From positions 106,165-153,172 of IMG/VR virus record IMGVR_UViG_3300045747_000694: a stretch of 47,008 nt of DNA; one strand, given 5' to 3'. Positions 8,607 to 45,468 of this stretch are shown here, one piece after another. The notes below the pieces were generated by a model that was not told the origin of the DNA, made no database searches, and worked only from the letters and a program-made list of their open reading frames with translations. The position numbers and the translations under genes were made by a program. The DNA is from a virus. The stretch's first letter is position 1. Each line of letters begins with the position of its first letter.

Positions 8607-9464
8607 ATGATCGAGGTCTCGGACACAAGTCCGGACCTGGACTGGGTCCTGGGGAAGCTCGCGGCCGCCAAGAAGGCGCCTCCAGCTTCCCCTGCGGCTT
8701 CTCCAGAGCAGAAGAAGCTGGATCTCCGGGCGAAGCAGCCGAAGGAGCTCGAGCTCTGGAAGGCGTGGAAGGATGGCGGCCAGAAGCCCCACCTCCTCGA
8801 GCCCCTGCTGAAGTCCTTCGCCCCGCTCATCAACTCGCGCATCAACCTCTACAAGAGGGCGGAGATCCCCACCGCGGCGCTCGAGCAGGAACACCACAAG
8901 TGGTTCCTGAAGGGGCTTCAGACCTTCGACCCCTCCAAGGGCGCGGCGCTCAACACGCACCTCACCACCAACCTGAAGAAGGCCGGGCGGTGGATCGAGG
9001 CCAACAAGAACTTCGCGTACATCCCCGAGAACGTCTCGCGCAACATCGGCGCCTACAAGAACTTCAAGGGCGAGCTGGCGGACCGGCTGGGCTACGAGCC
9101 GGACGACAAGACCATCCTCGACTTCGCCATCAAGGAGAAGCACCCGAAGCTGGGTGTGCTCTCCTTGAAGGACATCAAGCGCATCAACACGGACCAGCGC
9201 AAGGGCCTCATCGAGAAGGGGCACGAAGACGACCTCCTCTCCAACAGCGGGATCGACCCGCGCGAGGTCGAGGTGGCTCACCTCATCATCCCGCAGCTCA
9301 CCCCGCAGGAGCGGCTGGTTCATGAGCACACGCTGGGGCTGAACGGGAAGGCGCAGCTCAAGCCGGGCGACATCGCCAAGAAGCTGAAGATGGACAACTC
9401 CAAGGTGGCGAAGCTGCGCTCCGCGATCTGGAACAAGATGAAGCCGTACCTGGGCGAGTCATGA
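8607..9464 (+). CDS. Sigma-70 family RNA polymerase sigma factor (phage-encoded; regions 2 and 4 recognisable)
   Basis: Region-2-like segment ELELWKAWKDGG...LLEPLLKSFAPLINSRINLYKR. C-terminal region-4 helix-turn-helix LTPQERLVHEHTLGLNGKAQLKPGDIAKKLKMDNSKVAKLRSAIWNKMKPYL. Confidence 0.8.
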   Translation: MIEVSDTSPDLDWVLGKLAAAKKAPPASPAASPEQKKLDLRAKQPKELELWKAWKDGGQKPHLLEPLLKSFAPLINSRINLYKRAEIPTAALEQEHHKWFLKGLQTFDPSKGAALNTHLTTNLKKAGRWIEANKNFAYIPENVSRNIGAYKNFKGELADRLGYEPDDKTILDFAIKEKHPKLGVLSLKDIKRINTDQRKGLIEKGHEDDLLSNSGIDPREVEVAHLIIPQLTPQERLVHEHTLGLNGKAQLKPGDIAKKLKMDNSKVAKLRSAIWNKMKPYLGES

Positions 9465-9721
9465 CGACCTTCCGCGTCGACCCCACGATGCCCTCTCGTG
9501 TCGTGACCATCGCGACGACGAGGGACTCCCGGATGACCAGGTTGCAGCAGGCGACCAATGCCTACGCCGAGGTCGAGTTGAGCCGTATCGACGAAGAGGT
9601 GGCCGCCCTCGAGGCGATCACGAAGGCGCGCCGCGCCGGCCAGGGTGCCGCGGAGGACGCGGTGGGGCCAGCTACAGCCATTGCAGAAGCAGACATCGAC
9701 TCGTATCTGAGGGGAGTGTAA
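9461..9721 (+). CDS. Hypothetical protein (86 aa), ATGA-coupled to the sigma factor gene
   Basis: Start/stop overlap (ATGA). GC3 bias. Confidence 0.5.
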   Translation: MTTFRVDPTMPSRVVTIATTRDSRMTRLQQATNAYAEVELSRIDEEVAALEAITKARRAGQGAAEDAVGPATAIAEADIDSYLRGV

Positions 9722-9723
9722 CC

Positions 9724-10047
9724 GTGGAGGAGCTCTTCCAGCTCATCATCAAGTCCTACGGGCTCCTCGGGCTCGTCATGCTCTCGCCCTTCGTGGCGCT
9801 GAAGTTCATGTGGAGCCACGCCAAGGACCTCCAGAAGGATCTGAAGGCGGCCAACGAGCGCATCAACGAGACGCACTCCCGCCGGGTCGAGGACTCGAAG
9901 GAGATTGCCGACAAGCTCATGGAGATGATCAAGGAGCACGCCGAGCTCTCGAAGGAGACCAACATCGCTCTCGAGCGGGTCGGCGACATGCTCTCTGTGC
10001 TCCAGAACACGGGCGTCAGCCACATGAGGCACAACGGGGGACGTTGA
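9724..10047 (+). CDS. Small membrane protein (107 aa) with an N-terminal TM helix and a C-terminal coiled coil
   Basis: GTG start 2 nt after the upstream TAA. GGGGAG RBS. Hydrophobic segment LLGLVMLSPFVALKFMW followed by charged helical sequence. Confidence 0.5.
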   Translation: MEELFQLIIKSYGLLGLVMLSPFVALKFMWSHAKDLQKDLKAANERINETHSRRVEDSKEIADKLMEMIKEHAELSKETNIALERVGDMLSVLQNTGVSHMRHNGGR

Positions 10048-10056
10048 GGAGAGGTC

Positions 10057-10236
10057 ATGCACTACGGACGAAAGCAGTCATCTGCTTTGCACCTCCAGCC
10101 ACCGGCGCTGGAGTCCGATCCCAAGCTGAAGCTCGCCATGGAGTCCATGGACCAGCTCATCCGAGAGGCCAAGGCCAACCGGACCAAGGTGAAGGAGCTC
10201 GAGGTCCAGCTCGAGCGCTTCACCAGGCAGAGGTAG
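10057..10236 (+). CDS. Small coiled-coil protein (59 aa; below the ORF-track size cut-off)
   Basis: GAGGAG RBS 5 nt upstream of ATG 10057. Ends at TAG 10234-10236. The track ORF covering this region is in another frame and has no RBS. Confidence 0.4.
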   Translation: MHYGRKQSSALHLQPPALESDPKLKLAMESMDQLIREAKANRTKVKELEVQLERFTRQR

Positions 10237-10239
10237 GCG

Positions 10240-10491
10240 ATGTTCCTTCGGTGGTGGAACGAGCGCAAGGCGCGCAAGGAGACGAAGCGGCGACTCAACG
10301 ACGTGGTCATCACCACGGCCGCCATCAAGAGCCTCGACATCCCACTCAAGGAGCCAACCGAGGAGCAGTACTCGGCCACTGCATCCTTCGCCATCGTGAA
10401 GAAGTCGATCGACAACGCCACGGAGGCCAAGCAGGAAGCCAGAGGAGCAGCGCGACGCATCCTGGCCATGTTCGAGAAGCCCAAGAAGTAG
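10240..10491 (+). CDS. Small basic hypothetical protein (83 aa)
   Basis: ATG 3 nt after the upstream TAG. Weak AGAGG RBS. Confidence 0.45.
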   Translation: MFLRWWNERKARKETKRRLNDVVITTAAIKSLDIPLKEPTEEQYSATASFAIVKKSIDNATEAKQEARGAARRILAMFEKPKK

Positions 10492-10567
10492 CCTGGCAAC
10501 TTTGCTCTACGCAGCGGGCTGCTCGCCCCGTAGGATGTAAACGGCCCGTCTCCAGAGGTACGCACCG

Positions 10568-13500
10568 GTGGCTCTCCGCATCCCGAAGTTCATCCAGGAC
10601 CTGCTCAACGTCCCCACCGGGGCGCCGAACCACTACCTGCGATGGGACCCGCTGGCCAAGGAGATCATCAACGACCCTGGCCTCGGGGGCGGCGGCATCG
10701 GACCAGAGGGTCCCGCAGGTGCGACCGGTCCGCAGGGCGTTCCTGGCGTCACCGGTCCTCAAGGCCCGCAGGGACCAACGGGAGCCGTCGGTGCTACCGG
10801 CGCCGGCGTCACCGGCCCTCTCGGCCCGCAGGGTGCGACGGGCGCTCAAGGCGTCATCGGTCCGACGGGGGCACGGGGTCAGACTGGTGCCCAAGGTGAT
10901 GTCGGTCCCATCGGGCCGACTGGCGCTCAGGGTCCTCAAGGGGACCAGGGTGCGACCGGCCCTGTCGGCGCTGACGGCCCGCAGGGAGTGACTGGTGCGA
11001 CCGGTCCCGTTGGTCCTCAAGGCCAGACGGGGGCCGCCATCACGGGAGCTCAGGGTCTGCCCGGCGCGACAGGTCCGACCGGAGCAACGGGGGCGCGCGG
11101 CGCCACCGGCGTGACTGGGTCGGTCGGTCCGCAGGGGCCGACCGGAGCCGCCATCACTGGGGCGCAGGGGCCACAGGGAGTCACCGGTCCGACTGGCCCG
11201 ACCGGTGCCGTGGGCCCGCAAGGGCCGACTGGCGCCGCCATCACCGGGGCGGCCGGGCCGCAAGGGGTGACGGGCGCCACCGGTCCCACGGGGCCGCAGG
11301 GCCCCACCGGCGCGGCCATCACCGGAGCGACTGGCGTCACCGGCGCCCGCGGCGCCACGGGCGTGACCGGAGCCACTGGCCCAGCTGGTGCCACGGGTGC
11401 GACCGGCCCGGCCGGGCCGCAGGGTGTCACTGGCGCCACCGGGCCTACCGGCGCCGTCGGTCCGCAGGGGTCGACTGGCGCGGCCATCACGGGAGCACAA
11501 GGACCGCAGGGAGCCACCGGCGTGCCGGGCGTCACCGGCGCCACCGGGCCGATGGGCCCGGGCAGCCCCTCCGCCGGACCGACGGGAGCGCAGGGCGCCA
11601 CCGGCCCAGCTGGGCCGCAGGGCGTGACGGGTGCCACTGGCCCGACGGGGCCGAAGGGCGACACGGGAGCGGCCATCACCGGGGCAGCTGGCGTGACCGG
11701 CGTCACGGGCCCTGCCGGCCCGCAAGGCGTCACGGGGGCCACGGGCCCCACTGGCGCTCGCGGCGCGACCGGCGTCGACGGCGTCACGGGAGTGACTGGC
11801 CCAACGGGGGCTCGAGGTGCGACCGGCGTCGATGGGGTGACGGGCGCTACCGGGCCGACGGGTGCTCGCGGCGTCACGGGGGCGACCGGCCCAACAGGTG
11901 CTCCAGGCGTCCAGGGCGTCACGGGGGCGACCGGGCCGACCGGGGCGCAGGGAATCCAGGGGGTGACTGGGGCCACCGGTCCTACGGGCTCTCAGGGCCC
12001 TCAGGGGGTCACTGGCTCGACGGGTCCGACCGGGGCACCTGGCCCGCAGGGCGCGACCGGGCCAACTGGCCCGACAGGTGCGGTCGGTCCCCAGGGACCC
12101 ACGGGTGCCGCCATCACCGGAGCTGTGGGTCCGACGGGACCGGCCGGGCCAACCGGGCCGAAGGGTGACACCGGCGCCGCCATCACCGGCGCGCAGGGCG
12201 CCACCGGCGTTCAGGGGGTCCAGGGAGCCACGGGGCCCACCGGGCCCGCCGGCACGCAAGGGGTCACCGGCGCGACCGGGCCCACCGGGCCCGCCGGAGC
12301 TCAGGGTGCTACCGGTGCGACTGGGCCAGTTGGTCCGCAAGGTCCGACGGGTGCCGCGATCACGGGCGCCACCGGGCCGCAGGGGCCGCAAGGCAACCCC
12401 GGCGTCACGGGGCTCACCGGTGCGACAGGGCCGCAGGGATCGCAGGGCCCCACGGGAGCTCTCGGCCCCACCGGTCCTGCCGGTTCACAGGGAGTGACTG
12501 GCGCTACTGGTCCGACCGGAGCGCAGGGTCTTCAGGGCGCCACCGGGGCGACAGGTCCGACTGGGCCAGCGGGAGCGCAGGGGGTCACTGGCGCAACCGG
12601 CCCGACGGGCCCAGCTGGCGCGCAAGGGGTCACTGGTGCTACGGGGCCGACGGGACCGCAGGGCGTGCAGGGACCGACGGGCTCGGCCATCACCGGCGCA
12701 ACGGGGCCGGCTGGCCCGCAGGGACCGACAGGCACGCAGGGCATCACCGGGGCCACGGGACCGACCGGCCCTCAGGGCACGCAAGGCGTGACCGGGGCGA
12801 CCGGCCCGACCGGGCCGGCAGGCGCGCAGGGAGTCACCGGAGCTACTGGCCCGACTGGTCCCGCTGGTACGCAGGGCGTGACTGGGTTCACGGGCCCCGT
12901 CGGTCCTCAGGGTCCGACGGGAGCGGCTATCACTGGCGCTACCGGCCCTGTTGGTCCTCAGGGCCCGACCGGAGCGCAGGGCATCACCGGCGTCACCGGT
13001 GTCACCGGACCCACAGGTGCTCAGGGGCCTGCGGGCCCGACAGGGGCACAGGGGGTCACCGGGCTCACTGGGCCTGTCGGCCCGCAGGGGCCGACAGGTG
13101 CTGCCATCACGGGAGCCACCGGGCCCACCGGAGCGATCGGGCCTCAGGGTGTGACGGGGGCAACCGGGCCAACGGGCCCCGCGGGCGCAACCGGCGCAAC
13201 CGGCGTGACCGGCGCGCGAGGCGCGACAGGCATCACCGGAGCTACCGGACCCACGGGGCCTGCCGGTCCTCAAGGAGTGACCGGAGCCACCGGCCCTACC
13301 GGCCCGGGCGGCCCCACCGGCTCAGTCGGACCGCAGGGCGTCACCGGGGCAACGGGGCCCACCGGTCCGGCTGGTGCCGACGGTGCGACTGGCCCTGCTG
13401 GTGCCGGTCTCGATGGCGCCACTGGACCTATCGGTCCGGCCGGCGCTACTGGGGCGACCGGGCCAGCTGGTCCTCAGGGTGTCACGGGAGCAACGGGACC

Positions 13501-14371
13501 AACCGGGCCCGCCGGAGCAACCGGTGCGACCGGCGTGACGGGAGCTCGAGGCGCGACCGGGGTCACGGGAGCCACTGGCCCGCAGGGCTCTCCTGGCCCA
13601 ACGGGCGCCGCGATCACGGGAGCCATCGGACCGCAAGGCGTGACTGGCTGGACTGGCCCTGTCGGGCCGCAGGGTCCCACCGGAGCAGCCATCACTGGTG
13701 CAACCGGTCCTGCTGGTCCGACAGGTGCGACTGGCGCGATTGGGCCGACCGGTCCTGCCGGCAGCGGCGCAGTGAAGACGCTGAACCAGGCCTACTGGGA
13801 CGGCGGTACCGGCCCCGGCGGCGTGGGCGGAGAGATCGACCTCAACGCCACCATCGGACCGGTACGCCTCATCGGCTCCGGTGCGGCATCCGGCGGCGTC
13901 TACTTCCAGGTGGCAGACGCCGCCGGCGGCCTGCCTCTCTTCGAGGTGCGCGAGGGCGGTGGCCGCGGCGTCATCATGATCCCGCGCATCGAGCTCGGCG
14001 GCACGCCCCTCACCCCGGCCAACTTCTCGCTCTCTCGTTGGGGCTCGGGTGCGTCTTCCCCCGGCAACTACGGCGTGACGGGAGTCTCCTGCTCCGACGC
14101 CGGCGGGTCGTTCACCGTCGTCGCGGGGCAGACGGGGTACTCGCCAGCGCCCCAGATCACCATCAACTTCAAGGATGGTCCTCGAGCGGGCAACCCCTTC
14201 GTCCTCGCTCGCGTGATGAACCCGTGCATCCCTACGAACGCGAGCCTCTGGGGCTACAGCGTCATCAACCCGGTGCTCATCACCCAGAGCCCGACCTTCA
14301 TCACGATGATGATCCCGGGCTCCCCCACGAACCGCTGCTCCATCACCATCCAGTTCGTCTCCTTCGCATAA
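10568..14371 (+). CDS. Collagen-like fibre protein (1267 aa): about 1060 aa of Thr-rich Gly-X-Y repeats plus a roughly 200-aa beta-rich C-terminal globular domain (BclA-like architecture)
   Basis: Continuous G-P/A/V-T/Q triplets ([13 protein letters not shown]...). A recurrent GAAITGA interruption occurs about 14 times. Non-collagenous C-terminus begins around [18 protein letters not shown] start with an AGAGG RBS. Confidence 0.9.
10700..13760 (+). repeat. Triplet (9/18-nt) coding tandem repeats encoding the Gly-X-Y collagen-like region
   Basis: Reiterated GGN-CCN/GCN/GTN-ACN/CAG units. They create spurious long ORFs in all six frames. Confidence 0.85.
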
Positions 14372-14416: not shown

Positions 14417-15073
14417 ATGGAGCTCCGCTCGTCATCCTTCCGCGGGAAGGACTTCAAGTTCCAATGCGATCCCGAGGATCACTCCTCGCATTGGACCTTT
14501 GAAGACGAGAGGGGCGTTCGAGACGAGCTCTGGGACGTCCACGAGGGCGACATCATCCTCGACGTAGGAGCTGCTTTCGGTTCCTATGCGCTCTCCGCCC
14601 TGGCCGTCGGCGCTTCCTTCGTGCACTCCTGGAGCATGGAGACGCACCATCAGATCATGATGGAAGAGTCGCTCAAGGCGAACAGGTGGGAGAAGCGGTG
14701 CACCGTCAACCGCTTCGGTCTCTTCCACCGCCCAGGCTGGTACCGCTGGCAGGACCGCAGGTTCTCGGAGACTCCCGAAGAAGGCTTCGTGGTGGTCGAC
14801 TCCATCGACCACATGATGGAGGACCCAGAGCTCTTCCCCTACGGTCCTCGCTACTTCATCAAGATCGACACCGAGGGGGCCGAGCCGGAGATCCTCAAGG
14901 GGGCCGAGAAGTTCCTCGAAGTCCACCGCCCCAACATCTTGGTGGAGAACCACGACTTCCTTCGTCCACACGCCACCTCTTTGGTGCGCGAGTACCTCGC
15001 AGAGCAGGGGTTCGAGCTGAGCGTCGACCGCCCCTCCGCCATGTGTTCCCACTCTCTGTACCTCCCAGACTAA
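14417..15073 (+). CDS. FkbM-family SAM-dependent methyltransferase
   Basis: Motifs ILDVGAAFGSYAL (SAM-binding G-loop) and YFIKIDTEGAEPEILKGAEKFL, typical of the FkbM methyltransferase domain. Confidence 0.75.
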   Translation: MELRSSSFRGKDFKFQCDPEDHSSHWTFEDERGVRDELWDVHEGDIILDVGAAFGSYALSALAVGASFVHSWSMETHHQIMMEESLKANRWEKRCTVNRFGLFHRPGWYRWQDRRFSETPEEGFVVVDSIDHMMEDPELFPYGPRYFIKIDTEGAEPEILKGAEKFLEVHRPNILVENHDFLRPHATSLVREYLAEQGFELSVDRPSAMCSHSLYLPD

Positions 15074-15100
15074 CTGCCCGCACTTGATCGGAAGGGCTAC

Positions 15101-18100
15101 ATGACCGTCTCGCTTTGCATGATCGTGCGCGACGTCGAAGAGCACCTCGACGCCTGCCTGGCCTCGGTGGAGAAGTACGTCGACGAGATCGTCATCGTCG
15201 ATACCGGGTCGGTGGATGGGACGAAGGCTGTGGCGCTGCGGCACGGTGCCAAGATCTTCGACTTCAGCCCGGAGACCAACCCCGAAGCCTTCCTGCTCGA
15301 CGATGAGAAGACGATGGCTCCTCCTCCCTACACGGGGAAGTGGATCCTCGCCGACTTCGCCGGCGCGAGGAACCTCTCGTTCGACAAGGCGACCAGCGAC
15401 TTCGTCTTCTGGATCGACTCCGATGATGTCGTGGTGGGTGCCGAGAACATCCCCTCCATCCTGAAGGAGCTCGAGGGGATGCAGATGGGATGTGCCTGGT
15501 TCCGCTACGACTACGCCTTCTCTCCCGACGGGCAGCCTACCTGCCAGCTCTGGCGAGAGCGGATCATGCGGAAGGGCGCGGGAAGGTGGACGAACCCCAT
15601 CCACGAGGTCTGCATCCCCACGCAGGGGTCCGTCAGCAAGAACTACGACTTCGTCGTCATCAAGCACCAGAGGGACGACAACAAGACGCCCGCGGTGGCA
15701 CACCGCAACTACAAGGTGCTGAAGAGGCAGTACGAGAAGGAGAAGGGCGCCAAGAACTTCGACGCCAGGACGCTCTTCTACCTGGGCAACGAGTCGAAGT
15801 TCATGAACGCCGACGAGGCCATCGGCTACTTCGAGCAGTACCTGCGCCTCTCGGGATGGGACGAGGAGCGCGCTGTGGCGCGGATCCTCATGGGCCAGCT
15901 GTTCGAGGTGAAGGGCGACATCGAGGGGGCCTTCCGCGCCTACTCTTCCGCGACCTACGACTACCCCTTCAACCCCGATCCGTACTTCGCCCTCGCCCGT
16001 CTCGCCTACAAGAAGGACGACTGGAGGAAGTGCATCGACTTCACCGAGCACGGGCTGTCCAAGGGGAACCCGCACTCGGCCATCATGTACAACCCCCTCG
16101 ACCGGAACTACTACCCGCACACCTACTACAACGTCGCCCTCAACAACGTGGGCCGGGTGGCTGATGCGGCGAAGTCCTGCGAGGAAGGCCTCAAGTCCGT
16201 TCCGGAAGACACCAACCTCAAGTTCAACAAGCATCTCTACGACGACTACCTGAAGAGGAACCCGCAGCCGGAGAAGCAGGCGACCGCGCAGTCGATCACC
16301 TTCGACGGCGCCTCCATCGACTCTCCGCCCAACCTGCCTTCCGGTGTCGTCGCGACGCTGGGTCTCCAGATCTGGAAGGAGCTGCTTCGCTACGACGAGG
16401 TGGTGAAGGCGCGGACCTTCCTCGAGTCCCTTCCCTATGTCACCGAGGGGAGCGAGGGACTCGAGAAGGCGAAGAAGCTCACCGACGAGATCCTCGAGTT
16501 CGCCACCTCGCCAACCAAGATGCAGGCGCAGTACAACGACTGGCATCACGTCGACGAGGCCATCCCCTTCACGGCACAGGTGCCGAAGCACTGGTCTCAG
16601 TACCCGCGCTTCAGCTCGGTCATGGCGTTCTTCGAGGGGAAGTCGAAGCTGCGGGTCCTCGACATCGGCTGCCAGGACGGCTGGATCTCGAACCGTGTCG
16701 CGCGTCTCGGCCATTCGGTGGTGGGTCTCGACTTCAGCCAGGCCTACCTCGAGATCGCCAAGAGGAACGCCCGGTGCGAAGGGCTCGATGCCACCTACAT
16801 CCTCGGCTTCATCGAGGAGCTCTCCAAGGCGGTCCCTGAGAAGTACGACGTCGTCATCTGCACGGAGGTCATCGAGCACTCCGCGGACCCGGACAAGCTC
16901 ATCAGGGACATCAAGCGTGTGCTGAAGCCGGGCGGGACGCTTCTGCTCTCGACGCCGAAGGGGCACTGGTTCCAGGGGCAGGCGCATGAGTTCGCTTCGG
17001 CATGGAACGCGCCTCGTCAGCACATCCAGGCCTTCACCGTGAAGTCGCTCTCCAAGGTCCTGGGGAACCATCTCCACGTCACCTCCTGCTACGAGATGCC
17101 GGTCCCCACGCCGGACGTCCCTGGGCAGGGCACTCTCTTCGCCGAGGCGGTCTTCGAGATCACCCTCGAGAAGGGCGGGCAGGACATCGTCTTCTACACG
17201 GGGCCAGCGTGGGAGTGGTGGAACGCCAACAGCCCCTACCGAGAGGGGACGGGAGGCTCCGAGCTGGCCTGTGTGGAGATGGCGAAGTCCTTCGCGAGGA
17301 TGGGGCACAGGGTCAGGGTCTACAGCGACTGCCCGGGGATGGAGGGCATCTACGACGAGGTCGAGTACCTGCACTTCTCCCACGCGCAGCCTGGGACCAT
17401 CACCTGCGACGTCTTCATCAGCTCGAGGCAGCCCACTGTTCTCCCGGCGCTCCAGCTCACCGCCAAGGCGCGGATCCTCTGGGTGCACGACATCCACGTG
17501 GGCGCCCCAGGATCGCAGCTGCATGAGGCCCTGCTCCACTACGACAGGATCTTCTGCCTCTCCAAGTGGCATCGCGACTACTTCCTCAGCGTCTACCCCT
17601 TCCTCGACCCGGAGAAGGTGGTCGTCTCGAGGAACGGCATCCTCATCGAGCGCTTCCCCTGTGCCGAGCACGCCAAGGAGAACAAGCTCATCTACACCTC
17701 CTCTGGCAACCGCGGCCTCGAGCTGCTGCTCGACCTCTTCCCCCGCATCAGGGAGAAGGTCCCTGACGTCGAGCTCGAGGTCTACTACGGCTTCAACGTG
17801 TGGAAGTCGGCGGCCAGGAACAGCCCCGACGAGATGGCTCAGATCGAGCGCATCGAGCAGAAGATGAAGAACACTCCCGGCGTCATCACGATGGGCCGGG
17901 AGAACCAGCAGGGGCTTGCCAAGGCCTGGCTTCAGGCCAAGGTCTGGGCCTACCCGACCTGGTTCACCGAGACCTACTGCATCTCGGCCCTCGAGGCACA
18001 GGCTGCCGGCGCCGTCCCCGTGACCACGAACCTCGCAGCCCTCGGGGAGACCGTGCAGTCCGGCTTCCTCCTCAGTCCTCCTCTCAACGAGGAGTACAAC

Positions 18101-18286
18101 AAGGACTTCGTGGACTCGGTGGTGGAGCTGCTCACGGACGAGGAGGAGCGGCAGAAGCACGTCAAGATCGGAAGAGAGGCGGCCGAGAAGCTCACGTGGA
18201 GCAGCTTGGCCCTCGACTGGCGCAAGCAGTTCGATGAGGTGATCGAGGCGGTGAAGGTGAACCCCATCCACAGGTATATGCCATGA
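15101..18286 (+). CDS. Trifunctional glycosylation enzyme: N-terminal GT2 glycosyltransferase, TPR-like linker, class I SAM methyltransferase, C-terminal GT4 (GT-B) glycosyltransferase
   Basis: GT2 signature: IVRDVEEHLDACLASV...IVIVDTGSVDGT and a DSDD (DxD) motif. Methyltransferase motif I VLDIGCQDGWIS and ...VLKPGGTLLLSTP. GT4-like C-terminus: GGSELACVEMAKSFARMGHRV and EAQAAGAVPVTTN. Confidence 0.85.
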   Translation: MTVSLCMIVRDVEEHLDACLASVEKYVDEIVIVDTGSVDGTKAVALRHGAKIFDFSPETNPEAFLLDDEKTMAPPPYTGKWILADFAGARNLSFDKATSDFVFWIDSDDVVVGAENIPSILKELEGMQMGCAWFRYDYAFSPDGQPTCQLWRERIMRKGAGRWTNPIHEVCIPTQGSVSKNYDFVVIKHQRDDNKTPAVAHRNYKVLKRQYEKEKGAKNFDARTLFYLGNESKFMNADEAIGYFEQYLRLSGWDEERAVARILMGQLFEVKGDIEGAFRAYSSATYDYPFNPDPYFALARLAYKKDDWRKCIDFTEHGLSKGNPHSAIMYNPLDRNYYPHTYYNVALNNVGRVADAAKSCEEGLKSVPEDTNLKFNKHLYDDYLKRNPQPEKQATAQSITFDGASIDSPPNLPSGVVATLGLQIWKELLRYDEVVKARTFLESLPYVTEGSEGLEKAKKLTDEILEFATSPTKMQAQYNDWHHVDEAIPFTAQVPKHWSQYPRFSSVMAFFEGKSKLRVLDIGCQDGWISNRVARLGHSVVGLDFSQAYLEIAKRNARCEGLDATYILGFIEELSKAVPEKYDVVICTEVIEHSADPDKLIRDIKRVLKPGGTLLLSTPKGHWFQGQAHEFASAWNAPRQHIQAFTVKSLSKVLGNHLHVTSCYEMPVPTPDVPGQGTLFAEAVFEITLEKGGQDIVFYTGPAWEWWNANSPYREGTGGSELACVEMAKSFARMGHRVRVYSDCPGMEGIYDEVEYLHFSHAQPGTITCDVFISSRQPTVLPALQLTAKARILWVHDIHVGAPGSQLHEALLHYDRIFCLSKWHRDYFLSVYPFLDPEKVVVSRNGILIERFPCAEHAKENKLIYTSSGNRGLELLLDLFPRIREKVPDVELEVYYGFNVWKSAARNSPDEMAQIERIEQKMKNTPGVITMGRENQQGLAKAWLQAKVWAYPTWFTETYCISALEAQAAGAVPVTTNLAALGETVQSGFLLSPPLNEEYNKDFVDSVVELLTDEEERQKHVKIGREAAEKLTWSSLALDWRKQFDEVIEAVKVNPIHRYMP

Positions 18287-19425
18287 AGTTCGCCCTCATC
18301 TACGGTCGCTTCTGCTCCGCCGCCCGAGGCCCCTACAAGGCCCACGACATCGCCAGCCACGGCCTGACTGGCTCGGAGAGCTTCTACTTCAACACGGTGA
18401 AGGCGCTCTCCGAGGCTGGGCACACCGTCGACGCCTTCGGGTGGTGGGAGAAGGAGCACGTGGACGGCCTCGTCCACTACTACCCCTTCACCAAGAACGG
18501 GGACGACATGCACGTCCCCGATCCCGCGTCCTACGACGTGGCCATCGCATGGAGCGAGCCGGACTACCTTCGCGTCTTCCCCCCGACCGTTCTTCGGATC
18601 TGCGAGCAGCAGCTCAACGACTTCCCCTACGCCGGCGAGGGCTTCGAGAAGAGCGTCGATCTCTTCCTGTTCCCCTCCGACACCCACCGGAAGCACATCC
18701 TCTCCGTCACCCCCTGCATCGACCCGGCGAAGACGGACGTCTGGGGCAACTGCATCAGCAACGAGGACTACTTCACGGGGGAAGAGAAGGCTCGCGGGAA
18801 GAGCATCACCTACTGCTCCTCTCCGGACCGGGGACTGCACTGGCTCTGCGAGCTCTTCCCCCGGGTGAGGGCGAAAGTTCCCGAAGCCACCCTGCACGTG
18901 TACTATCGCTTCATGCCGTGGTACCAGCAGATGGCTGGTGAGTGGAACCCCGGCAACCCGGCCGCGCACCAGCAGGGCATGCGGGCCAGGTACGCGGGGT
19001 CGTTCTTCTACAAGATGGGAGCGATGGGAGAGAGCGGGGTCTTCTTGCACGGGGCAGTCACCAACCAGCAGATGGTCGCTGCCCTGGAGAGCTCTCGAGT
19101 CCTCGCGTATCCCTGTGACCCCGTCGTCTTCACCGAGGGCTTCGGGGTTTCCGTCCTCGATGCCTGCGCTGCTGGCGCCATCCCCATCATCAGCGACGTC
19201 GACGCGTTTGGAGAGGTCTACGGCGGCACGGCCATGGTCATCCCGGGACGGCCTGGCGACCACCGGGACGAGTGGGTCGCTGCGATGGTGAAGGCCCTCA
19301 CCGATGACGACCTCCAGAAGGAAGTCACCACCAGGTGCAGGGCCTTCTCGAAGAAGTTCACGAGGAAGGCCAGGGTGAAGCAGCTGCTCAAGATCATCTC
19401 CTCCCTGAAGAAGGCTGCCGCATGA
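18283..19425 (+). CDS. GT4-family (GT-B fold) glycosyltransferase
   Basis: ATGA overlap with the upstream gene. GT4-like segment VLAYPCDPVVFTEGFGVSVLDACAAGAIPIISDVDAFGEV. Confidence 0.75.
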   Translation: MKFALIYGRFCSAARGPYKAHDIASHGLTGSESFYFNTVKALSEAGHTVDAFGWWEKEHVDGLVHYYPFTKNGDDMHVPDPASYDVAIAWSEPDYLRVFPPTVLRICEQQLNDFPYAGEGFEKSVDLFLFPSDTHRKHILSVTPCIDPAKTDVWGNCISNEDYFTGEEKARGKSITYCSSPDRGLHWLCELFPRVRAKVPEATLHVYYRFMPWYQQMAGEWNPGNPAAHQQGMRARYAGSFFYKMGAMGESGVFLHGAVTNQQMVAALESSRVLAYPCDPVVFTEGFGVSVLDACAAGAIPIISDVDAFGEVYGGTAMVIPGRPGDHRDEWVAAMVKALTDDDLQKEVTTRCRAFSKKFTRKARVKQLLKIISSLKKAAA

Positions 19426-20909
19426 AGGGCGCTCTCGTCATCCCACCCTCCGCCTTCCTGCTCGACGCGAGGGTCTTCGTCAGTCTGGGCATCCTGAAGG
19501 TCGCCGCGGCGCTCGAGGCGAGAGGGGTCATGGTGGACGTCATCGACCTCTCCGGGGTCGCCAACTACAAGGACGCCCTCAGCGACTACCTCCACAACTC
19601 TCGGCCGGAGTGGGTCGGCATCACGGCGACGACTCCGCAGATGCCCTACGTCACGGAGCTCTCCCGGCTGGTCCGCTCTCACGGGGCCAAGGCCATCCTG
19701 GGCGGCCCGCACCCCACCCTCACCAACGCGGCCTACAAGAACGAGAAGAAGCTCCACCGTTCTGGCCGTGGGGGCAAGGCTTGGGAGCAGCTCCTCGAGG
19801 AGTTCGATGTCGTCGTGACCGGGGATGGGGAGAAGGCCATCTTCGAGGCCATCGACAAGAGCTGCGGCCACGTCGATGCCGACGATCCGAGAAGCGAGCT
19901 GTGGGTCTCCGAGAAGGAGATGATGGACCTCCAGCCGGCCCGCCACCTGGTCGACCTCTCCAGCTACCACTACTCCATCGACGGGGAACGGGCGACGAGC
20001 CTCATCGGCCAGCTGGGCTGTCCCTTCCAGTGCGCCTTCTGTGGCGGCCGCGCCTCTCCGATGCTGCGGCGCTCGAGGGTGCGGACGGTGCCGGACATCA
20101 TCGCCGAGGTGGCCCACCTGCATGACCGGCACGGCTACAAGGGCTTCATGTTCTACGACGACGAGCTCAACGTCGCGAAGAGCATGCCAGCCCTCATGGA
20201 CGCCATCCACCTCCTGGCCGTGAGCCGCAAGACGGAGTTCCGCCTGAGGGGCTTCATCAAGGCCGAGCTCTTCACCGACGAGCAGGCAGCCTCCATGGTG
20301 AGGGCCGGGTTCAAGTGGATCCTGGTGGGCTTCGAGTCGGGGTCGCCGAGGATCCTGGAGAACATCCGGAAGCAGGCCACCGTCGAGGACAACACCCGCT
20401 GCCTCGAGATCGCCAGGCGCCACGGGCTGAAGGTGAAGGCCCTGATGTCCATCGGCCACGCTGGCGAGTCGGCCGAGACCATCGCCGAGACGCAGGCCTG
20501 GCTCCTCAAGATGATGGTGGACGACTTCGACGCCACCATCATCACCACCTACCCCGGCACGCCCTACTACGACGAGGCCTACGAGTCGTCGGCAGGCATC
20601 TGGACCTACCAGGCCAAGGGCGGGGACAAGCTGCACGCCTACGCTCTCGACTACTCGAAGGTCTCCGACTACTACAAGGGCGACCCCAACGCCGGCTACA
20701 AGGCGTACGTCTTCACCGACCACCTCTCTTCCGAGGACCTTGTAGGTCTTCGTGGGCAATTGGAGCAGAAGGTAAGGACGGAGCTTTCTATTCCCTTCTA
20801 CCCAGGCGCGCCTGCGGTACAGTACGAACATTCCATGGGGATGGCCGGGCTTCCCGACACCATCCTACGGTCCTCGCACTTCGCGACCGCGCAAGGAGTG
20901 GGGACATGA
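19422..20909 (+). CDS. B12-binding-domain radical SAM enzyme
   Basis: N-terminal Rossmann-like B12-binding region (KGALVIPP...LGILKVAAALEARGVMVDVIDL). Radical SAM CxxxCxxC motif (GCPFQCAFCGG). Start chosen at the ATGA overlap with the upstream stop rather than the longer in-gene track start. Confidence 0.8.
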   Translation: MKGALVIPPSAFLLDARVFVSLGILKVAAALEARGVMVDVIDLSGVANYKDALSDYLHNSRPEWVGITATTPQMPYVTELSRLVRSHGAKAILGGPHPTLTNAAYKNEKKLHRSGRGGKAWEQLLEEFDVVVTGDGEKAIFEAIDKSCGHVDADDPRSELWVSEKEMMDLQPARHLVDLSSYHYSIDGERATSLIGQLGCPFQCAFCGGRASPMLRRSRVRTVPDIIAEVAHLHDRHGYKGFMFYDDELNVAKSMPALMDAIHLLAVSRKTEFRLRGFIKAELFTDEQAASMVRAGFKWILVGFESGSPRILENIRKQATVEDNTRCLEIARRHGLKVKALMSIGHAGESAETIAETQAWLLKMMVDDFDATIITTYPGTPYYDEAYESSAGIWTYQAKGGDKLHAYALDYSKVSDYYKGDPNAGYKAYVFTDHLSSEDLVGLRGQLEQKVRTELSIPFYPGAPAVQYEHSMGMAGLPDTILRSSHFATAQGVGT

Positions 20910-22111
20910 TCGCAACCATCCGAGACGCGAAGGGCCTGGGCAACTTCGCCGTCTACATTCGTTTCCGCAACGACATCACGAACTACTGGAACTTCGTGAC
21001 GCAGGCGTGGGAGGCGCTGGAGACCTCCGACTGCCGGCAGTTCCTCACCGAGTACCCGGACTCCAGCACCGTCGAGTCCCGCTACCAGCTCGAGCTCGCC
21101 AGCAACGTCATCCCGCCCGGCACCTTCATCGTCGAGTACGTTCACAGCTCGGACGAGATGGTCATCGGCGAAGAGACCTTCGCCGGCCCGCCGCCGCCCA
21201 TCTCCGGCACCGGGGCGAACCTCGTCACGGTCACGGTGACCGACGGTTCCGTCCCCATCGCCGGCGCCTTGGTGCAGGCCTGGCAGGCGGGGGTGCTCCT
21301 CGCCGCGGTGCTGTCCGACACCCAGGGAGTCGCGGCACTCGGTCTGCCTGCCGGCACCATCAACCTCGTCGTCACGAAGACGAGCTGGGGCTCCTTCCCG
21401 CAGCACACGATGACGGTGGTGGCTGGCCCGCAGGCAGTGGCCATCCAGGGGACGGCGACGCCGCCTGGCGCCCTTCCCCCGAGCGGCTTCGGGATCCTCA
21501 TCGCGGTGGGCGACGCGGACGCCAAGCTCCAGATGGGCTACTCCGTCATCGAGGTGCAGTCCTCGGACGATGAGGGCAACTCGTGGCAGGCCCTCACCGC
21601 GCCAGTCGCTGCCCCGCCGATTCAGGTCCACATCCCCCTGATGCCGGCGACCTACGCCTACTCCTTCCTCGACCCCCAGGGGACCTCGAAGCGTCGCTAC
21701 CGCTGGCGCTTCTCGGCCAACGGCGTGGCCCCGATCTCCCCCTTCGTGAAGTGGGTCTTCGGCACGCAGCGCGTCTCCACCGTCCCCATCTCCGTGGGGA
21801 CGATGCGTTTCGTTGGGCTGGACGGCATCATTCGTCCAGGCACCCTGCTGGCGGCCGCGCTGGATGCCTCTTCCGGCGGCTCGGTGTTCGTCGGAGTCAT
21901 GCTCGCCTACAACACCGACGAGTCCGGCTTCCTCGCCATCCCTCTCGTGCAGGGGTCGAAGGTGAGAGTTGCCATCGAGGGCACCAGCATCGTGAGGGAC
22001 ATCACCGTCCCCACCACCGAGACCTTCGACATCATGCAAGCCATCACCGCCGCGCCTGACATGTTCACGGTCCAGACGGTGCCTCCGATGCTCACGAAGA
22101 GGGCTCTCTAA
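20906..22111 (+). CDS. Structural protein (401 aa) with a carboxypeptidase-regulatory-like (transthyretin-like beta-sandwich) domain
   Basis: AAGGAG RBS. ATGA overlap with the rSAM gene. Segment GANLVTVTVTDGSVPIAGALVQAWQAGVLLAAVLSDTQGVAALGLPAGTINLVV. The track's longer 20315 start lies inside the upstream gene. Confidence 0.7.
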   Translation: MIATIRDAKGLGNFAVYIRFRNDITNYWNFVTQAWEALETSDCRQFLTEYPDSSTVESRYQLELASNVIPPGTFIVEYVHSSDEMVIGEETFAGPPPPISGTGANLVTVTVTDGSVPIAGALVQAWQAGVLLAAVLSDTQGVAALGLPAGTINLVVTKTSWGSFPQHTMTVVAGPQAVAIQGTATPPGALPPSGFGILIAVGDADAKLQMGYSVIEVQSSDDEGNSWQALTAPVAAPPIQVHIPLMPATYAYSFLDPQGTSKRRYRWRFSANGVAPISPFVKWVFGTQRVSTVPISVGTMRFVGLDGIIRPGTLLAAALDASSGGSVFVGVMLAYNTDESGFLAIPLVQGSKVRVAIEGTSIVRDITVPTTETFDIMQAITAAPDMFTVQTVPPMLTKRAL

Positions 22112-23016
22112 TGTCGACAGTGAACATCCTGGTGACGTCGGACGGGACCACTCCCTCACCCATCGCTGGTGCCGTCGTCTCCATCGTGGACCCCGCCACG
22201 AACCTGGCGCTCGTGGCCCGCGCGACCACCAACTCCTCGGGCATCGCTGGCTTCGACATCCCGGATGGCGTCTACGAGCTCCGTCTCTACAAGCGGAACG
22301 TCGTCTTCGGCGGGCCCGTGGCCATCACCGTCCTCGGCAACGGGGCGTACACGGTGACCGGCACGCTGATGCTCCTGCCGGTGGCGACCGACCCCCTGCT
22401 CTGCCGCTGCACGGGCCGCTTCGTCGGCTTCTCGGGACAGCCCCTCGCCAACGTCACGCTCGTCTTCACGCAGCGGGGTGACACCGAGAACATCGTCCCT
22501 CGGGTGTTCGACTCGCAGCTCGTGGGGCAGTCCGACCTCATCGCGCACACCAACACGGAGGGCTTCATCACCCTCGACCTCATCCGCACCGGAGAGTTCA
22601 AGCTCTCCATCTCCGGTGAGGAGCTGGTCTGGGACTTCAGGGTCCCCGACCGTTCTTCCGCAAACCTCATCGACCTTCTGCATCCTCAGCCGGTGTCTCT
22701 GACGTGGGATCCCACCTTGGCACCGGCGAATGCCATCACGGTGCAGGTGGGGCAGACCATCACGGTCCCGGTGTCCCTCGTACTGTCGAACTACGAGGTC
22801 CTCAACAACGGAGCTACCGAGCTATGGCTGGCGTATCTGAACTCAGACTCGATCATCGCCCCCGCGGCAATCGGGGACGCCGGAATGGAAGTGACGGGCG
22901 GGGCCGTCGGAACGGCGCAGATCTCCGCGTCTGCACGCCAGGGGTTCTACCCGCGAAGGGTGCCCGACCCGCCGGTGCTGGTCACGACCCCGCTGACCAT
23001 CAACGTTACACCCTGA
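22111..23016 (+). CDS. Structural protein (301 aa) with an N-terminal CarboxypepD_reg-like domain
   Basis: TAATG overlap. ILVTSDGTTPSPIAGAVVSIVDPATNLALVARATTNSSGIAGFDIPDGVYELRLYKRN. Confidence 0.7.
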   Translation: MSTVNILVTSDGTTPSPIAGAVVSIVDPATNLALVARATTNSSGIAGFDIPDGVYELRLYKRNVVFGGPVAITVLGNGAYTVTGTLMLLPVATDPLLCRCTGRFVGFSGQPLANVTLVFTQRGDTENIVPRVFDSQLVGQSDLIAHTNTEGFITLDLIRTGEFKLSISGEELVWDFRVPDRSSANLIDLLHPQPVSLTWDPTLAPANAITVQVGQTITVPVSLVLSNYEVLNNGATELWLAYLNSDSIIAPAAIGDAGMEVTGGAVGTAQISASARQGFYPRRVPDPPVLVTTPLTINVTP

Positions 23017-26477: not shown

Positions 26478-29400
26478 ATGGCACAGGCCGAACTGAAGAC
26501 CTTCGTAGAGGACCGCCTTCAGGCGCTGGTCCCAGGCATCGACGTCTCGGCCGGGTCTCCCGCGCAGACGACCTTCGTCGATCCGCTGATGCAGTACCTC
26601 GGGACCGACCCCTTCGAGACGGACATCGACAAGTTCCTCTCGGACCGCTTCCGCCAGGAGTACCCCGACATCTACGCCGGCGACCCGAGCGCCATCCGCG
26701 ACCTCTTCGTGAAGCCGCTCATCACCTTCCTCGAGCCCATCAAGCGGGAGATCCTGACCGTCCGCAGGAACCAGTCGTTGCAGGACCCGGCGCTCCTCTC
26801 GGACGACGATGCCGATGCGCTGGTGGCCAACTTCTACGACCAGCGTGCGCAGGGCGCCCTCGCCGGCGGCACGGTCCGGGCCTACTACTCCAACCCCGCC
26901 AACGTCCCCATCGAGACCACGGTCCGCTTCTCCACGGCCGGCGGTCTCGCGTTCTTCCCTACGGCCCCCACCTCCATCACGGCGGAGGAGATGGTCTTCA
27001 ATCGGGACGGGACGCTCTACTACGCCGACATCCCGGTGAAGGCGGAGAAGGAGGGGGCCGCCTACAACGTTGGGGTCGGGACCATCGTCAACGTCGATGG
27101 CCTCTTCGGCATCGTGAAGGTCTCGAACCTCCAGGTCTTCCAGAGCGGGGCCGACAAGATCTCCACCGATGCCTTCGTCTCCCAGTCGCGCGAGGCACTG
27201 AACGAGCGGTCGCTGCTCAACCGCCGCGGCGCCGTGCCCCGGCTGCGGGATGCCTTCCCGGGCCAGCTGCGCGCCGTGCAGGTCATCGGGGCTCAGGACA
27301 AGGAGATGGAGCGCGACATCCTGGTGGGCCACACCAAGGGCCACACCTGGCTCACTGGCCGCGTCACCCTCTACGAGAGCATGGCCCTCGTGCAGGCTCG
27401 CACGGTCGATGATGGCGCCGAGTCGGCCCCCGTCGCCGGGGACACGCTCTACGTCTACCTCGACAAGACGACCTGGCCGTCCGGGATCTTGCAGAAGGAC
27501 AGGTTCGTGGAGCTCACCGTGGAGGAGACGATCCTCGACGGCATCGGCGGATCTGGGGCCTTCCAGTGCAGCTTCCTGGTGAGGTGGTCTGGCTCCCTCC
27601 CGACGGGCATCCTCGCTCCCCTGTCGGTGGAGGGGGGCTGCACGAGGAAGGGGACGATCTCCATCACCTCGATCCCAGGCATCGGAGCCCTCACGGCCGA
27701 TGTCCCGGACCAGTCGGTGCACATCTACGGGCACACCGACATCTACGTTCGCCCCACGGCCGACGTGGTGTCGAAGTCGGTGCTGTCTCCCGTCGTCGAC
27801 GCCTCCCCGGTCATGGAGTACACGACGCTCTCCACGGCGGCCACGGTGCCCACCAACTCGGTGCTGGACTCGGTGGGCCGAGACTTCGCGGTGGCCGGCG
27901 TCCTCCCCGGGGACGTCCTCTACATCGAGTCGAGTGACGCCGCGGGCACCTACACCATCGCCGACGTCACGGGGTCGGGTTCCGGATCGCGGCTCCTCCT
28001 CGCCACCAACATCGAGAGAGCGGCGACGAACGCCAGGTACCGGATCTCCCGTACCGTGAAGGTCGACCTCTTCAGCCCCAAGATCCCCAAGCTCCCCTTC
28101 TCCAACCTGCCGGCGGACGACCTCACCACGCAGATCGGGTCGCTGCTCTTCTCCTTCTCCACGAACACCGTCGACTACGGCGTCCGCATCGGGGACACGG
28201 TCCGCGTCACCTCGGGTCCGGACGTCGGGGACTTCACGATCACCGGCTTCGACGGCGTCCTCGGGGGCCGTGGGGTTCTCGTGGACCGTCGGGCCACGGC
28301 ATCCGTGGCCGGGGTCAAGTACGAGATCTTCACGCTCCTGGAGCCGGTGCAGAAGCCCCTCATCCGCCTCAAGGAGGTCATGCTCCTCGACTCCTCCAAG
28401 AAGGCCACGGGGGTCACGGTGCCTCCGGCGCTTCCGGTAGCGGTGCGGTCCCTGAGCGACTTCACCTCGGCCAGCGCCAAGGGGCGCAGCTACCAGAACG
28501 GCGGCATCGTCCTCCCGAAGCTCGACACGCTCTTCACCACGACGAACGTGCCCGCCATCAACGGGGACATGCGCTACTCGACGGGGAGTGAGCCGGCCGA
28601 CGGGGGCTCCTACAAGGCGTTCGAGCTCAACTACTCCGGGCATGTGGAGGGAGAGATCCTCGTCCCCTCCTCGGCCTACTCGGAGTGCTCCTGGTTCCTC
28701 GCCCTGGTGGAGGACGTCGATGCCGTCAGCGGGAAGCCGCCGGTGGTCTTCGAGGTTGGCGGAGTGCTCAACCTCTTGAGCGGGCCGAACAAGGGCGGCT
28801 ACCTCATCCGCGAGGTGAAGAAGGTCAGGTACTACCCGATCGCCACGCCGACCGTCCCCTACTGGCTCACCTTCGTCCGGATCCATGGGACGTTCCCGGT
28901 CGACACCTTCCGCTCGGTGATCGACTTCATCGCAGCCAACCCTGTGCCCATCACCGGCTTCCCCGGCATCCCGACACTGCGTGCCGAGATCGACGGGACT
29001 CCCGTGCTCGAGACGTGGTTCGGCGACTTCTGGGCCAACCTCCCGACCTGGGTGAACGGCTCCATCGGCCTGCTTGGCGGGTCCCCTCCCAGCACGACAG
29101 TGGCAGCCATCGACACGCTCCTGGCGACGGACTACGAGGTGGGCACTCCTGCGCGGGGCATCCTCCGCTCCTACTTCCAGCAGCCTACCCTCTTCACGCA
29201 GAACACCGCCGGGTCCCCGACCCCCACCGTCTACGACTTCAAGGCCGTCACGGGGGACATCCTCTCCTTCCGCCCGGACCCCTTCCGCTACGAGGAGCAG
29301 AACATCCTCCCGGCGCGCGAGGTCTCGGACGTCGACGTGTTCAGCTCCCCTCGAGACGTGCTGCCGTCGGTTCCGACGGCAGCCTCTGGGACGTCGGCCG

Positions 29401-45359: not shown

Positions 45360-45388
45360 CGGGCTCTCCTTTCTTGGTGTCGTGCTGC

Positions 45389-45465
45389 GTGGTACCCCAG
45401 GAGGGACTCGAACCCTCATCGACGCGGAGTTTGAGTCCGCCGCATGTACCATTCTGCTACTGGGG
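45389..45465 (-). tRNA. Atypical tRNA: anticodon CAA (Leu by anticodon) but class-I structure with a short variable loop; CCA encoded
   Basis: Acceptor GCCCCAG/CTGGGGT; discriminator A; anticodon arm GCGGA-CTCAAAC-TCCGC; T-arm GAGGG-TTCGAGT-CCCTC; no long variable arm. Confidence 0.55.
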
Positions 45466-45468
45466 CGT

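Follow-up and report, generated by a model that had tools for sequence, protein, structure and literature searches.

A 47,008-nucleotide stretch of viral DNA (positions 106,165 to 153,172 of IMG/VR record IMGVR_UViG_3300045747_000694; hereafter the window) carries a gene for a 1061-amino-acid protein that joins two glycosyltransferases and a methyltransferase in one chain, here called the fusion protein. The open reading frame (ORF) occupies positions 15101..18286 of the plus strand, stop codon included, and starts with ATG. From N- to C-terminus it encodes a family 2 glycosyltransferase (GT2) domain, a tetratricopeptide repeat (TPR)-like region, a helical bundle, a class I methyltransferase, and a GT4-type glycosyltransferase. 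Genes of the window, whose DNA is ~64% GC, form a single long co-directional array. Around the fusion gene, the order is collagen-like protein, FkbM-family methyltransferase, fusion protein, second GT-B glycosyltransferase, radical S-adenosylmethionine (SAM) enzyme, two proteins with immunoglobulin (Ig)-like folds, and then Baseplate_J/gp6-like and giant structural proteins. Relatives on 196-198 kb contigs share this order, and the syntenic 198-kb contig is classified as viral in IMG/VR.

The ORF at 15101..18286 is one real, intact gene, and a frameshift or assembly artefact is excluded. A Shine-Dalgarno-like motif read from the sequence, GGAAGGG (15090..15096, plus strand), lies 4 nt before the ATG; the N-terminal residues MTVSLCMIV line up with the starts of homologs and of the bacterial glycosyltransferase SgtA; and the TGA stop shares the tetranucleotide ATGA with the start codon of the next gene. 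GC content at third codon positions (GC3) stays at 0.86-0.96 in one frame across every 100-codon window of the ORF, including the linkers between domains. The identical protein was recovered twice, from a JGI 153-kb contig and from a Logan SRR35489129 contig that were assembled independently, and homologs of 1060-1170 amino acids cover 98-100% of the query at 28-86% identity.

Long spurious ORFs do arise in high-GC DNA, and an antisense ORF of 1279 amino acids (14432..18271, minus strand) is longer than the fusion gene and spans essentially the whole of it, so ORF length by itself proves nothing. The chance that the fusion ORF is a similar accident, or that a frameshift or mis-assembly joined separate genes, is nevertheless negligible. 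All domain matches fall in one frame on the plus-strand product, and a Pfam scan of the antisense ORF returned zero family matches. The high GC3 runs from end to end, the independent assemblies agree, and the same architecture recurs in 56 of 91 related loci at 26-86% identity. The antisense ORF was rejected as a gene and is regarded as a shadow of GC3-rich codon usage. Comparable shadow ORFs accompany most large genes of the window.

An AlphaFold2 model built from an alignment of 21 full-length homologs resolves five discrete modules, with a mean predicted local distance difference test (pLDDT) score of 89.4 and a predicted template modeling (pTM) score of 0.62. The N-terminal GT2 domain (residues 1-195; 15101..15685; this and the following segments on the plus strand) adopts a GT-A fold with a metal-binding DxD motif and is recognized by Pfam Glycos_transf_2 (PF00535, 6.5e-13), by the model, and by alignment with the glycosyltransferase domain of SgtA. 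Its D106-x-D108-D109 (within W-I-D-S-D-D), R152-E153-R154, and H168-E169 motifs are invariant in all 21 homologs. An insertion of ~25 residues (PEAFLLDDEKTMAPPPYTGKWILA; residues 59-84, window positions 15275-15352) is conserved solely in the closest relatives (P0002-P0009) and is absent from SgtA, GmaR, and remoter family members.

The GT2 domain is followed by a TPR-like alpha-helical repeat (residues 202-386; 15704..16258), presumed to bind the protein acceptor. The Pfam TPR_14/TPR_2 match reaches only 0.002, under the curated cut-off, and is upheld because the modeled helical repeat, profile matches to consensus TPR proteins and to the TPRs of OGT, and an end-to-end alignment with SgtA agree. 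A disordered, poorly conserved linker (residues 390-412; 16268..16336) comes next, with pLDDT below 50 at residues 390-405 and a length that varies across the homolog alignment; its GC3 of ~0.86 marks it as still coding. Beyond the linker lies a conserved helical bundle (residues 414-481; 16340..16543) with a WKE..HDE motif, in which E433 and P445 are invariant.

The methyltransferase (residues 500-685; 16598..17155) has a Rossmann fold in the model and is matched at residues 507-655 by five class I SAM-dependent methyltransferase families of Pfam (Methyltransf_31/23/11/25/12), with values up to 3e-22. It combines the class I fold with a glycine-rich motif I, VLDIGCQDG (519-527), whose G523 is invariant across the 21 homologs, as are E592 and H593. 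NCBIfam classes the domain as UbiG-like, under the equivalog cut-off, and profile searches of solved structures (PDB) return UbiG and the methyltransferase domain of WbdD. NCBIfam names for this domain (UbiG, BioC, and others) score far under their curated cut-offs and were not taken as function. By analogy with A064R, WsaE, and WbdD, and from its genomic context, the substrate is probably a sugar that undergoes O-methylation.

The C-terminal module (residues 695-1055; 17183..18265) is a GT-B fold glycosyltransferase with two Rossmann-like domains, bearing Glyco_transf_4 (PF13439; residues 718-850, 2.5e-7) and Glycos_transf_1 (PF00534; residues 859-1026, 8.6e-11) signatures, together with a PF13692 match (1.2e-9). 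Foldseek aligns it with PimA, GlgM, and a methylmannose-polysaccharide mannosyltransferase at TM scores of ~0.66-0.71 on the target (PimA, GlgM, 7qsg). The label GT4 denotes a GT4-type enzyme by Pfam and motif and is not a formal CAZy assignment. Invariant positions are G716-x-G718-G719-S720-E721, H796-D797, S867-S868, and E957; the last opens an E-x7-E motif (E957-x7-E965) whose second glutamate is at least 90% conserved among the same homologs. The protein contains no transmembrane segments, with a maximum Kyte-Doolittle score of 0.97.

The invariance of signature residues across the 21 homologs means that all three catalytic modules are under purifying selection. A first-pass annotation of this DNA had described a single uninterrupted polypeptide carrying GT2, TPR, class I methyltransferase, and GT4 domains, with three catalytic activities in one ORF. 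Pfam, GC3, homolog alignment, and AlphaFold2 agree with that description: no frameshift or sequencing error is evident, given a single coding frame, two identical assemblies, and full-length homologs; the model resolves the GT-A domain, TPR-like repeat, bundle, methyltransferase, and GT-B domain; and the motifs of all three catalytic modules are kept in the 21 homologs, invariant down to 28% identity. The four modules it named stand. It overlooked the fifth, the bundle at residues 414-481, as well as the protein-glycosyltransferase nature of the GT2-TPR region and the adjoining gene for a Thr-rich collagen-like fibre.

SgtA is a 358-amino-acid GT-A+TPR enzyme of C. difficile, encoded beside bclA3, that transfers beta-O-linked N-acetylglucosamine (GlcNAc) in vitro onto threonines in the GPT collagen repeats of the exosporium protein BclA3 (PMC7157674). 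Its sequence was located in the genome collection via the published cloning primer. BLASTP aligns residues 1-383 of the fusion protein with complete SgtA over 391 columns (E=2e-40, 26% identity), and hhalign aligns the family profile with complete SgtA over 351 columns that take in the GT-A as well as the TPR region (probability 100%, E=3e-54). The GT2-TPR module is thus homologous, over the full length of SgtA, to an enzyme proven to O-glycosylate threonines of collagen repeats.

Among solved structures, the nearest to the GT2 module by profile are GmaR (2.7e-37), SunS (3.8e-26), and ThuS (4e-15). GmaR is the Listeria flagellin O-GlcNAc transferase, and SunS and ThuS are glycocin S/O-glycosyltransferases. 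Foldseek recovers SunS and ThuS at TM scores of 0.53-0.63 on the target, with OGT and SPINDLY matching the TPR+GT architecture; its top match is a TPR-containing capsule polymerase (8qoy). End-to-end homology groups the N-terminal module of the fusion protein with GT2+TPR O-glycosyltransferases of the SgtA/GmaR type.

The gene upstream offers a candidate acceptor for such an activity. A 1267-amino-acid collagen-like protein (10568..14371, plus strand; Pfam Collagen 2.4e-122, PHROG tail-fibre families) contains 334 G-X-Y triplets, with threonine at Y in 171 of them (51%), and ends in a 177-residue non-collagen domain that has no PDB or Pfam match. Its gene stops 730 nt before the fusion gene, with only the FkbM gene between the two. 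With 74-79% GC, compared with ~64% elsewhere in the window, the collagen-like gene stands out in composition. An identical G-A-A-I-T-G motif recurs at 13 places in its triple-helix region and regularly breaks the G-X-Y register. Neighbors of related enzymes were surveyed within 10 kb at 79 non-redundant loci, 49 of them not capsid-adjacent. A collagen-like gene lies upstream on the same strand in 24 of these 49 and downstream in 2, and across the collagen-like genes of the surveyed loci Thr or Ser occupies Y in 46% of 7,962 triplets.

Other genes of the cluster encode further candidate glycan-modifying enzymes. The 218-amino-acid FkbM-family methyltransferase (14417..15073, plus strand) matches PF05050 at 1.8e-11 and TIGR01444 above its cut-off. 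Downstream, the start of a second GT-B (GT1/GT4-like) glycosyltransferase of 380 amino acids (18283..19425, plus strand) overlaps the fusion stop in the shared ATGA. The next gene, also with an overlapping start, encodes a 495-amino-acid B12-binding radical-SAM enzyme resembling class B methylases (19422..20909, plus strand; Pfam B12-binding and Radical_SAM; gene call in locus L001). NCBIfam names for it (PhpK, BchE, HpnJ, C-methylases) fall far under cut-off and were not taken as function. Translational coupling ties this radical-SAM gene to the glycosyltransferase cluster, and the two also occur together in other phages. The enzyme may C-methylate a sugar or modify the fibre protein itself. 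Among the 91 loci, homologs of the 380-residue glycosyltransferase occur near the fusion family at 51, FkbM at 22, and radical-SAM at 20. Two conserved proteins of 401 and 301 amino acids follow (20906-22111 and 22111-23016, plus strand), with weak matches to CarboxypepD_reg/prealbumin-like Ig folds; either could be a fibre or decoration protein and serve as another glycan acceptor. The glycosyltransferase and methyltransferase genes of the window sit among virion structural genes, between the fibre gene and the Baseplate_J/gp6-like genes.

The fusion protein belongs to a large family. A scan of IMG/VR found at least 564 confirmed relatives in viral contigs, and an exhaustive search of 1.84 billion representatives (50% identity) returned 1,917 proteins at E<=1e-30, the best 150 all below 1e-99. 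The set of 91 loci, 80 of which are the best IMG/VR viral loci, was examined with domain HMMs (hidden Markov models) made from the homolog alignment. GT2, TPR, bundle, methyltransferase, and GT4 share one ORF at 56 of the 91, including 48 of the 80 from IMG/VR, and a GT2-TPR-GT4 form with no methyltransferase is present at 29. A word-indexed search likewise gave ~20 clusters in which all of the domains are present, and many GT2-TPR-GT4 proteins without the methyltransferase. Viral structure libraries hold many other multi-domain proteins that contain glycosyltransferases alone, or glycosyltransferases with a methyltransferase or FkbM domain. The phage GenBank collection contains no full-length relative, its best match covering 68% of the query at 34% identity. 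The first-pass view that such fusions are uncommon and not expected in a phage is contradicted by these numbers: this is a common, conserved, uncharacterised phage family and not an oddity.

Parts of the enzyme also occur separately. Stand-alone versions appeared in the exhaustive search (SgtA-like P0195 and GT4 P0198), and in loci L060, L068, and L087 the bundle and methyltransferase form a separate gene in the same operon as a methyltransferase-less GT2-TPR-GT4 protein. That the parts occur both fused and split supports the view that they are functionally linked. A distant full-length relative (P0070) lies in loci L006-L008, NCBI metagenome assemblies whose contigs reach 439 kb. Before it come a protein of more than 3,100 amino acids with 571 G-X-Y triplets and a Laminin_G_3 protein; after it come an NAD-dependent sugar epimerase/dehydratase, a pair of GT4 genes, and a UDP-glucose dehydrogenase. 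These loci are a self-contained nucleotide-sugar and glycosylation module in a huge phage-like element.

In a second group of contigs, the five-module enzyme directly follows the gene for the major head protein. This arrangement is found at no fewer than 26 other phage loci on contigs of 5-62 kb, several of them 56-62 kb (capsid-adjacent loci L021-L046, L050-L057, L062, L065, and L080; in L037, for example, 8763-9905 and then 9995-13123). The adjacent capsids belong to at least four PHROG families (4523/133, 1328, 1005, and 1357), a diversity that speaks for coupling to the capsid gene having been repeated or maintained, as opposed to synteny that was simply inherited. In MW202524, a complete phage genome, a GT2-TPR-GT4 relative with no methyltransferase module comes after the major capsid gene, with one short ORF between them. 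The enzyme thus consistently lies within a virion structural module, beside a major surface protein.

Taken from an intact gene, its domain folds and conserved catalytic residues, its homology to SgtA, GmaR, and SunS, its conserved neighborhood, and its split and fused variants, the most plausible role of the fusion protein is O-glycosylation of virion proteins, chiefly of the collagen-like fibre in the phage studied here (probability about 60%). The enzyme is probably soluble, cytoplasmic, and trifunctional, in a jumbo-phage-like virus whose relatives lie on the 196-198 kb contigs. In the proposed sequence of events, the TPR repeats would bind the acceptor protein and the GT2 domain would attach the first sugar to Thr or Ser, most likely in the Thr-rich G-X-T repeats of the upstream collagen-like fibre. 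The C-terminal GT4-type module would then add a further sugar, and the bundle and methyltransferase would O-methylate the glycan, perhaps capping it as in WsaE, A064R, and WbdD. The co-transcribed FkbM methyltransferase, second GT4, and B12 radical-SAM enzyme could elaborate the glycan further. We infer the acceptor, donor sugars, reaction order, and methylation target from homology and context, along with a biological role that may lie in shielding, stability, or host recognition. Assembly of a short methylated glycan, which the first-pass annotation had also proposed, is a reasonable expectation by analogy with two experimentally established cases, PBCV-1 A064R and Geobacillus WsaE.

Several points weigh against this assignment. 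A detectable collagen-like gene occurs within 10 kb in only about half of the 49 non-capsid-adjacent loci, and the upstream collagen-like protein of L020 has almost no Thr or Ser at Y. The PHROG 'tail fiber' matches of the collagen ORF stem from low-complexity repeats and do not prove it a virion component. In the smaller phages, the capsid proteins beside the enzyme have no Ser/Thr-rich C-terminal tail, which implies that the family acceptor differs between lineages or is not simply the product of the upstream gene. For the same reason, a 'glycosylated tail' model like that of Che8 is unsupported for the capsid-adjacent phages. With a pTM of 0.62, the relative arrangement of the domains, and hence the 'channelling' suggested in the first pass, is not established. 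Solubility alone is compatible with a polysaccharide acceptor, by analogy with the soluble WbdA/WbdD and WsaE, which act on lipid-linked glycans. For the family as a whole, the acceptor, donor, and methylation target rest on inference.

The closest alternative retains the chemistry and changes the substrate: capsid, tail, or decoration proteins would be modified instead of or besides the fibre, and the adjacency of the fibre gene would be incidental. The 26 or more loci with a capsid gene, not a collagen gene, directly before the five-module enzyme favor such acceptors, as does glycosylation of both capsid and tail tube in mycobacteriophages; the Ig-like 401- and 301-residue CarboxypepD_reg-type proteins downstream could also serve. 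This alternative is nonetheless rather unlikely for the phage studied here. SgtA, the full-length homolog of the N-terminal module, modifies collagen-repeat threonines, the neighbor of the fusion gene is an extreme G-X-T protein, and collagen-like genes in this sub-lineage lie upstream in 24 cases versus downstream in 2. PHROG and Pfam recognised no capsid gene in the 47-kb window.

A role on the host cell envelope is the one usually assumed in the literature for phage glycosyltransferases. In that case, the enzyme would act on lipid-linked intermediates to synthesize or modify O-antigen, capsule, S-layer glycan, or teichoic acid, as an auxiliary function or in superinfection exclusion. The resemblance of the GT4 and methyltransferase modules to polysaccharide enzymes (the WbdD methyltransferase domain at 2e-11, PimA, and the methylmannose-polysaccharide mannosyltransferase) fits this idea, as do the capsule polymerase 8qoy as best Foldseek match and the nucleotide-sugar enzymes adjoining distant relatives. 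It is made improbable by homology of the N-terminal module, over its whole length, to protein and peptide glycosyltransferases, by the lack of membrane segments in the fusion protein, and by a gene that is always embedded in virion structural modules beside capsid or fibre genes; moreover, neither the window nor the related loci inspected showed a polyprenyl-phosphate transferase, flippase, ABC transporter, or ligase. Phage glycosyltransferases also classically glucosylate DNA, and diverse DNA-glycan clusters with methyltransferases and glycosyltransferases are known (bioRxiv 10.1101/2023.12.21.572611), so that hypermodification of phage DNA through glycosylated hydroxymethyl-pyrimidines, as a defense against restriction, deserves mention. 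It is highly improbable here: neither the cluster nor the scanned ORFs of the window include a DNA cytosine methyltransferase, a TET/JBP-like dioxygenase, or genes for hydroxymethylcytosine or hydroxymethyluracil synthesis, and the UbiG-like and FkbM-type methyltransferases are small-molecule or sugar enzymes. The TPR region and SgtA homology point to a protein acceptor, and the locus sits in a structural module rather than a replication or nucleotide module.

The remainder of the window gives few clues to the virus. Three very large ORFs of 1487, 1429, and 1085 amino acids (26478-30941, 33562-37851, and 38499-41756, plus strand) belong to the structural module. Only the first has a recognizable domain, Baseplate_J/gp6-like, in its N-terminal ~250 residues; PHROG and Pfam gave no match for the others, a sign that the virion is very divergent. 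Most large neighboring ORFs likewise gave nothing by PHROG or Pfam, and no capsid, terminase, or host clue emerged from the window. A stand-alone Peptidase_C39-like cysteine protease (43607-44083, plus strand; 2.1e-18) marks the end of the structural array, and an HNH endonuclease (44811-45479, minus strand; 6.2e-16) is the sole clear minus-strand gene. Among the small genes upstream of the fibre gene, a 285-amino-acid protein (8607-9464, plus strand) weakly matches phage RNA polymerase sigma factors in PHROG (2.6e-8), and its Rubrerythrin match is sub-threshold.

To our knowledge, only a few mycobacteriophages have so far been shown to glycosylate their virions with phage-encoded enzymes, and in those phages the modification lowers recognition by neutralising antibodies. 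The fusion family suggests that virion glycosylation is widespread in uncultured phages, jumbo phages included, and that it can be carried out by a compact, tractable single-chain machine. We give even odds to a general version of this idea, namely a widespread phage system that uses a single polypeptide to start O-glycans on virion surface proteins, lengthen them, and cap them with methyl groups, the acceptors being Thr-rich collagen-like fibres in jumbo phages and capsids in phages of ~60 kb. If it is true, glycan-coated virions would be common among environmental phages, phage fibres would be tied to the biology of BclA-type glycosylated collagen-like filaments, and the annotation habit of reading phage glycosyltransferases as DNA- or host-envelope-modifying enzymes would need correction. 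The proposal predicts a G-X-T collagen repeat as acceptor, a first sugar added by the SgtA-like module, and methylation afterwards. Joined to the long-sought 'extending' enzymes, the SgtA-like module would then be a ready model for building BclA-like collagen glycoproteins and a modular enzyme for glyco-engineering of collagen-like peptides. A search of the literature combining jumbo phage, collagen, and glycosyltransferase returned only mammalian collagen papers.

Two published enzymes also combine two glycosyltransferase domains and one methyltransferase in a single polypeptide. A064R of the chlorovirus PBCV-1 contains two rhamnosyltransferases and a 2-O-methyltransferase and acts on the capsid glycan. 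It resembles the fusion protein in being a virus-encoded single chain, and it extends and 2-O-methylates a glycan of a virion protein. It differs in its length of 638 amino acids, its GT-GT-MT (methyltransferase) order, its lack of a TPR region, and its substrate, N-glycans on the capsid of a eukaryotic virus, with no initiation on protein; the folds also differ, the GT4 module of the fusion protein being GT-B. WsaE of Geobacillus stearothermophilus is likewise soluble and trifunctional, with a methyltransferase and two rhamnosyltransferases, and its methylation caps the chain. E. coli O9a WbdA/WbdD follows a similar logic, and the WbdD methyltransferase domain is a detectable sequence relative of that in the fusion protein (2e-11). 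The substrate of WsaE, which has the order MT-GT-GT and no TPR or protein-glycosyltransferase module, is a lipid-linked S-layer glycan that undergoes export and en bloc transfer. The relation of the fusion protein to A064R and WsaE is thus an analogy of function and not membership, as the published GT-GT-MT and MT-GT-GT arrangements differ from GT-TPR-MT-GT.

Cluster O mycobacteriophages use an O-methyltransferase and three glycosyltransferases to alter their capsid and their tail tube (Freeman 2023, cited by PMC11600133). As that account presents them, Che8, Corndog, and cluster O phages resemble the phage studied here in encoding their own O-methyltransferase and several glycosyltransferases, which in their case act on virion structural proteins. 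They differ in having separate genes for these enzymes, in being actinobacteriophages, and in having capsid and tail-tube proteins as acceptors. Mimivirus L230 parallels the proposed role in being a virus-encoded bifunctional enzyme that glycosylates viral collagen-like proteins. As a collagen lysyl hydroxylase/glucosyltransferase of a eukaryotic virus, it differs in placing glucose on hydroxylysine and in its GT25-like and 2-oxoglutarate oxygenase domains.

GmaR, SunS, and ThuS share with the N-terminal module a GT-A domain, a helical repeat, and protein or peptide acceptors. GmaR runs on into an anti-repressor domain, SunS and ThuS act on cysteines of small peptides, and all three are without methyltransferase or GT4 modules. 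SgtA has the same GT-A-then-TPR order, with the SLCMIV, DTGS, DF-ARN, DxDD, RER, and PIHEV motifs in common, and each of the two genes adjoins one for a collagen-like protein with Thr-rich G-X-T repeats. The bacterial SgtA stands alone, and the enzymes that extend its glycan were never found, whereas the fusion protein, known from sequence only, is phage-encoded, joined to a methyltransferase and a GT4 module, and has the ~25-residue GT2 insertion. After the work on SgtA/BclA, A064R, and the mycobacteriophages, such an enzyme is not very surprising to a glycobiologist, yet it is uncharacterised, widespread, and directly testable. It is best filed within the known class of virus-encoded multi-domain virion-glycosylation enzymes, where the joining of an SgtA-like protein O-glycosyltransferase with a methyltransferase and a GT4 module sets it apart.

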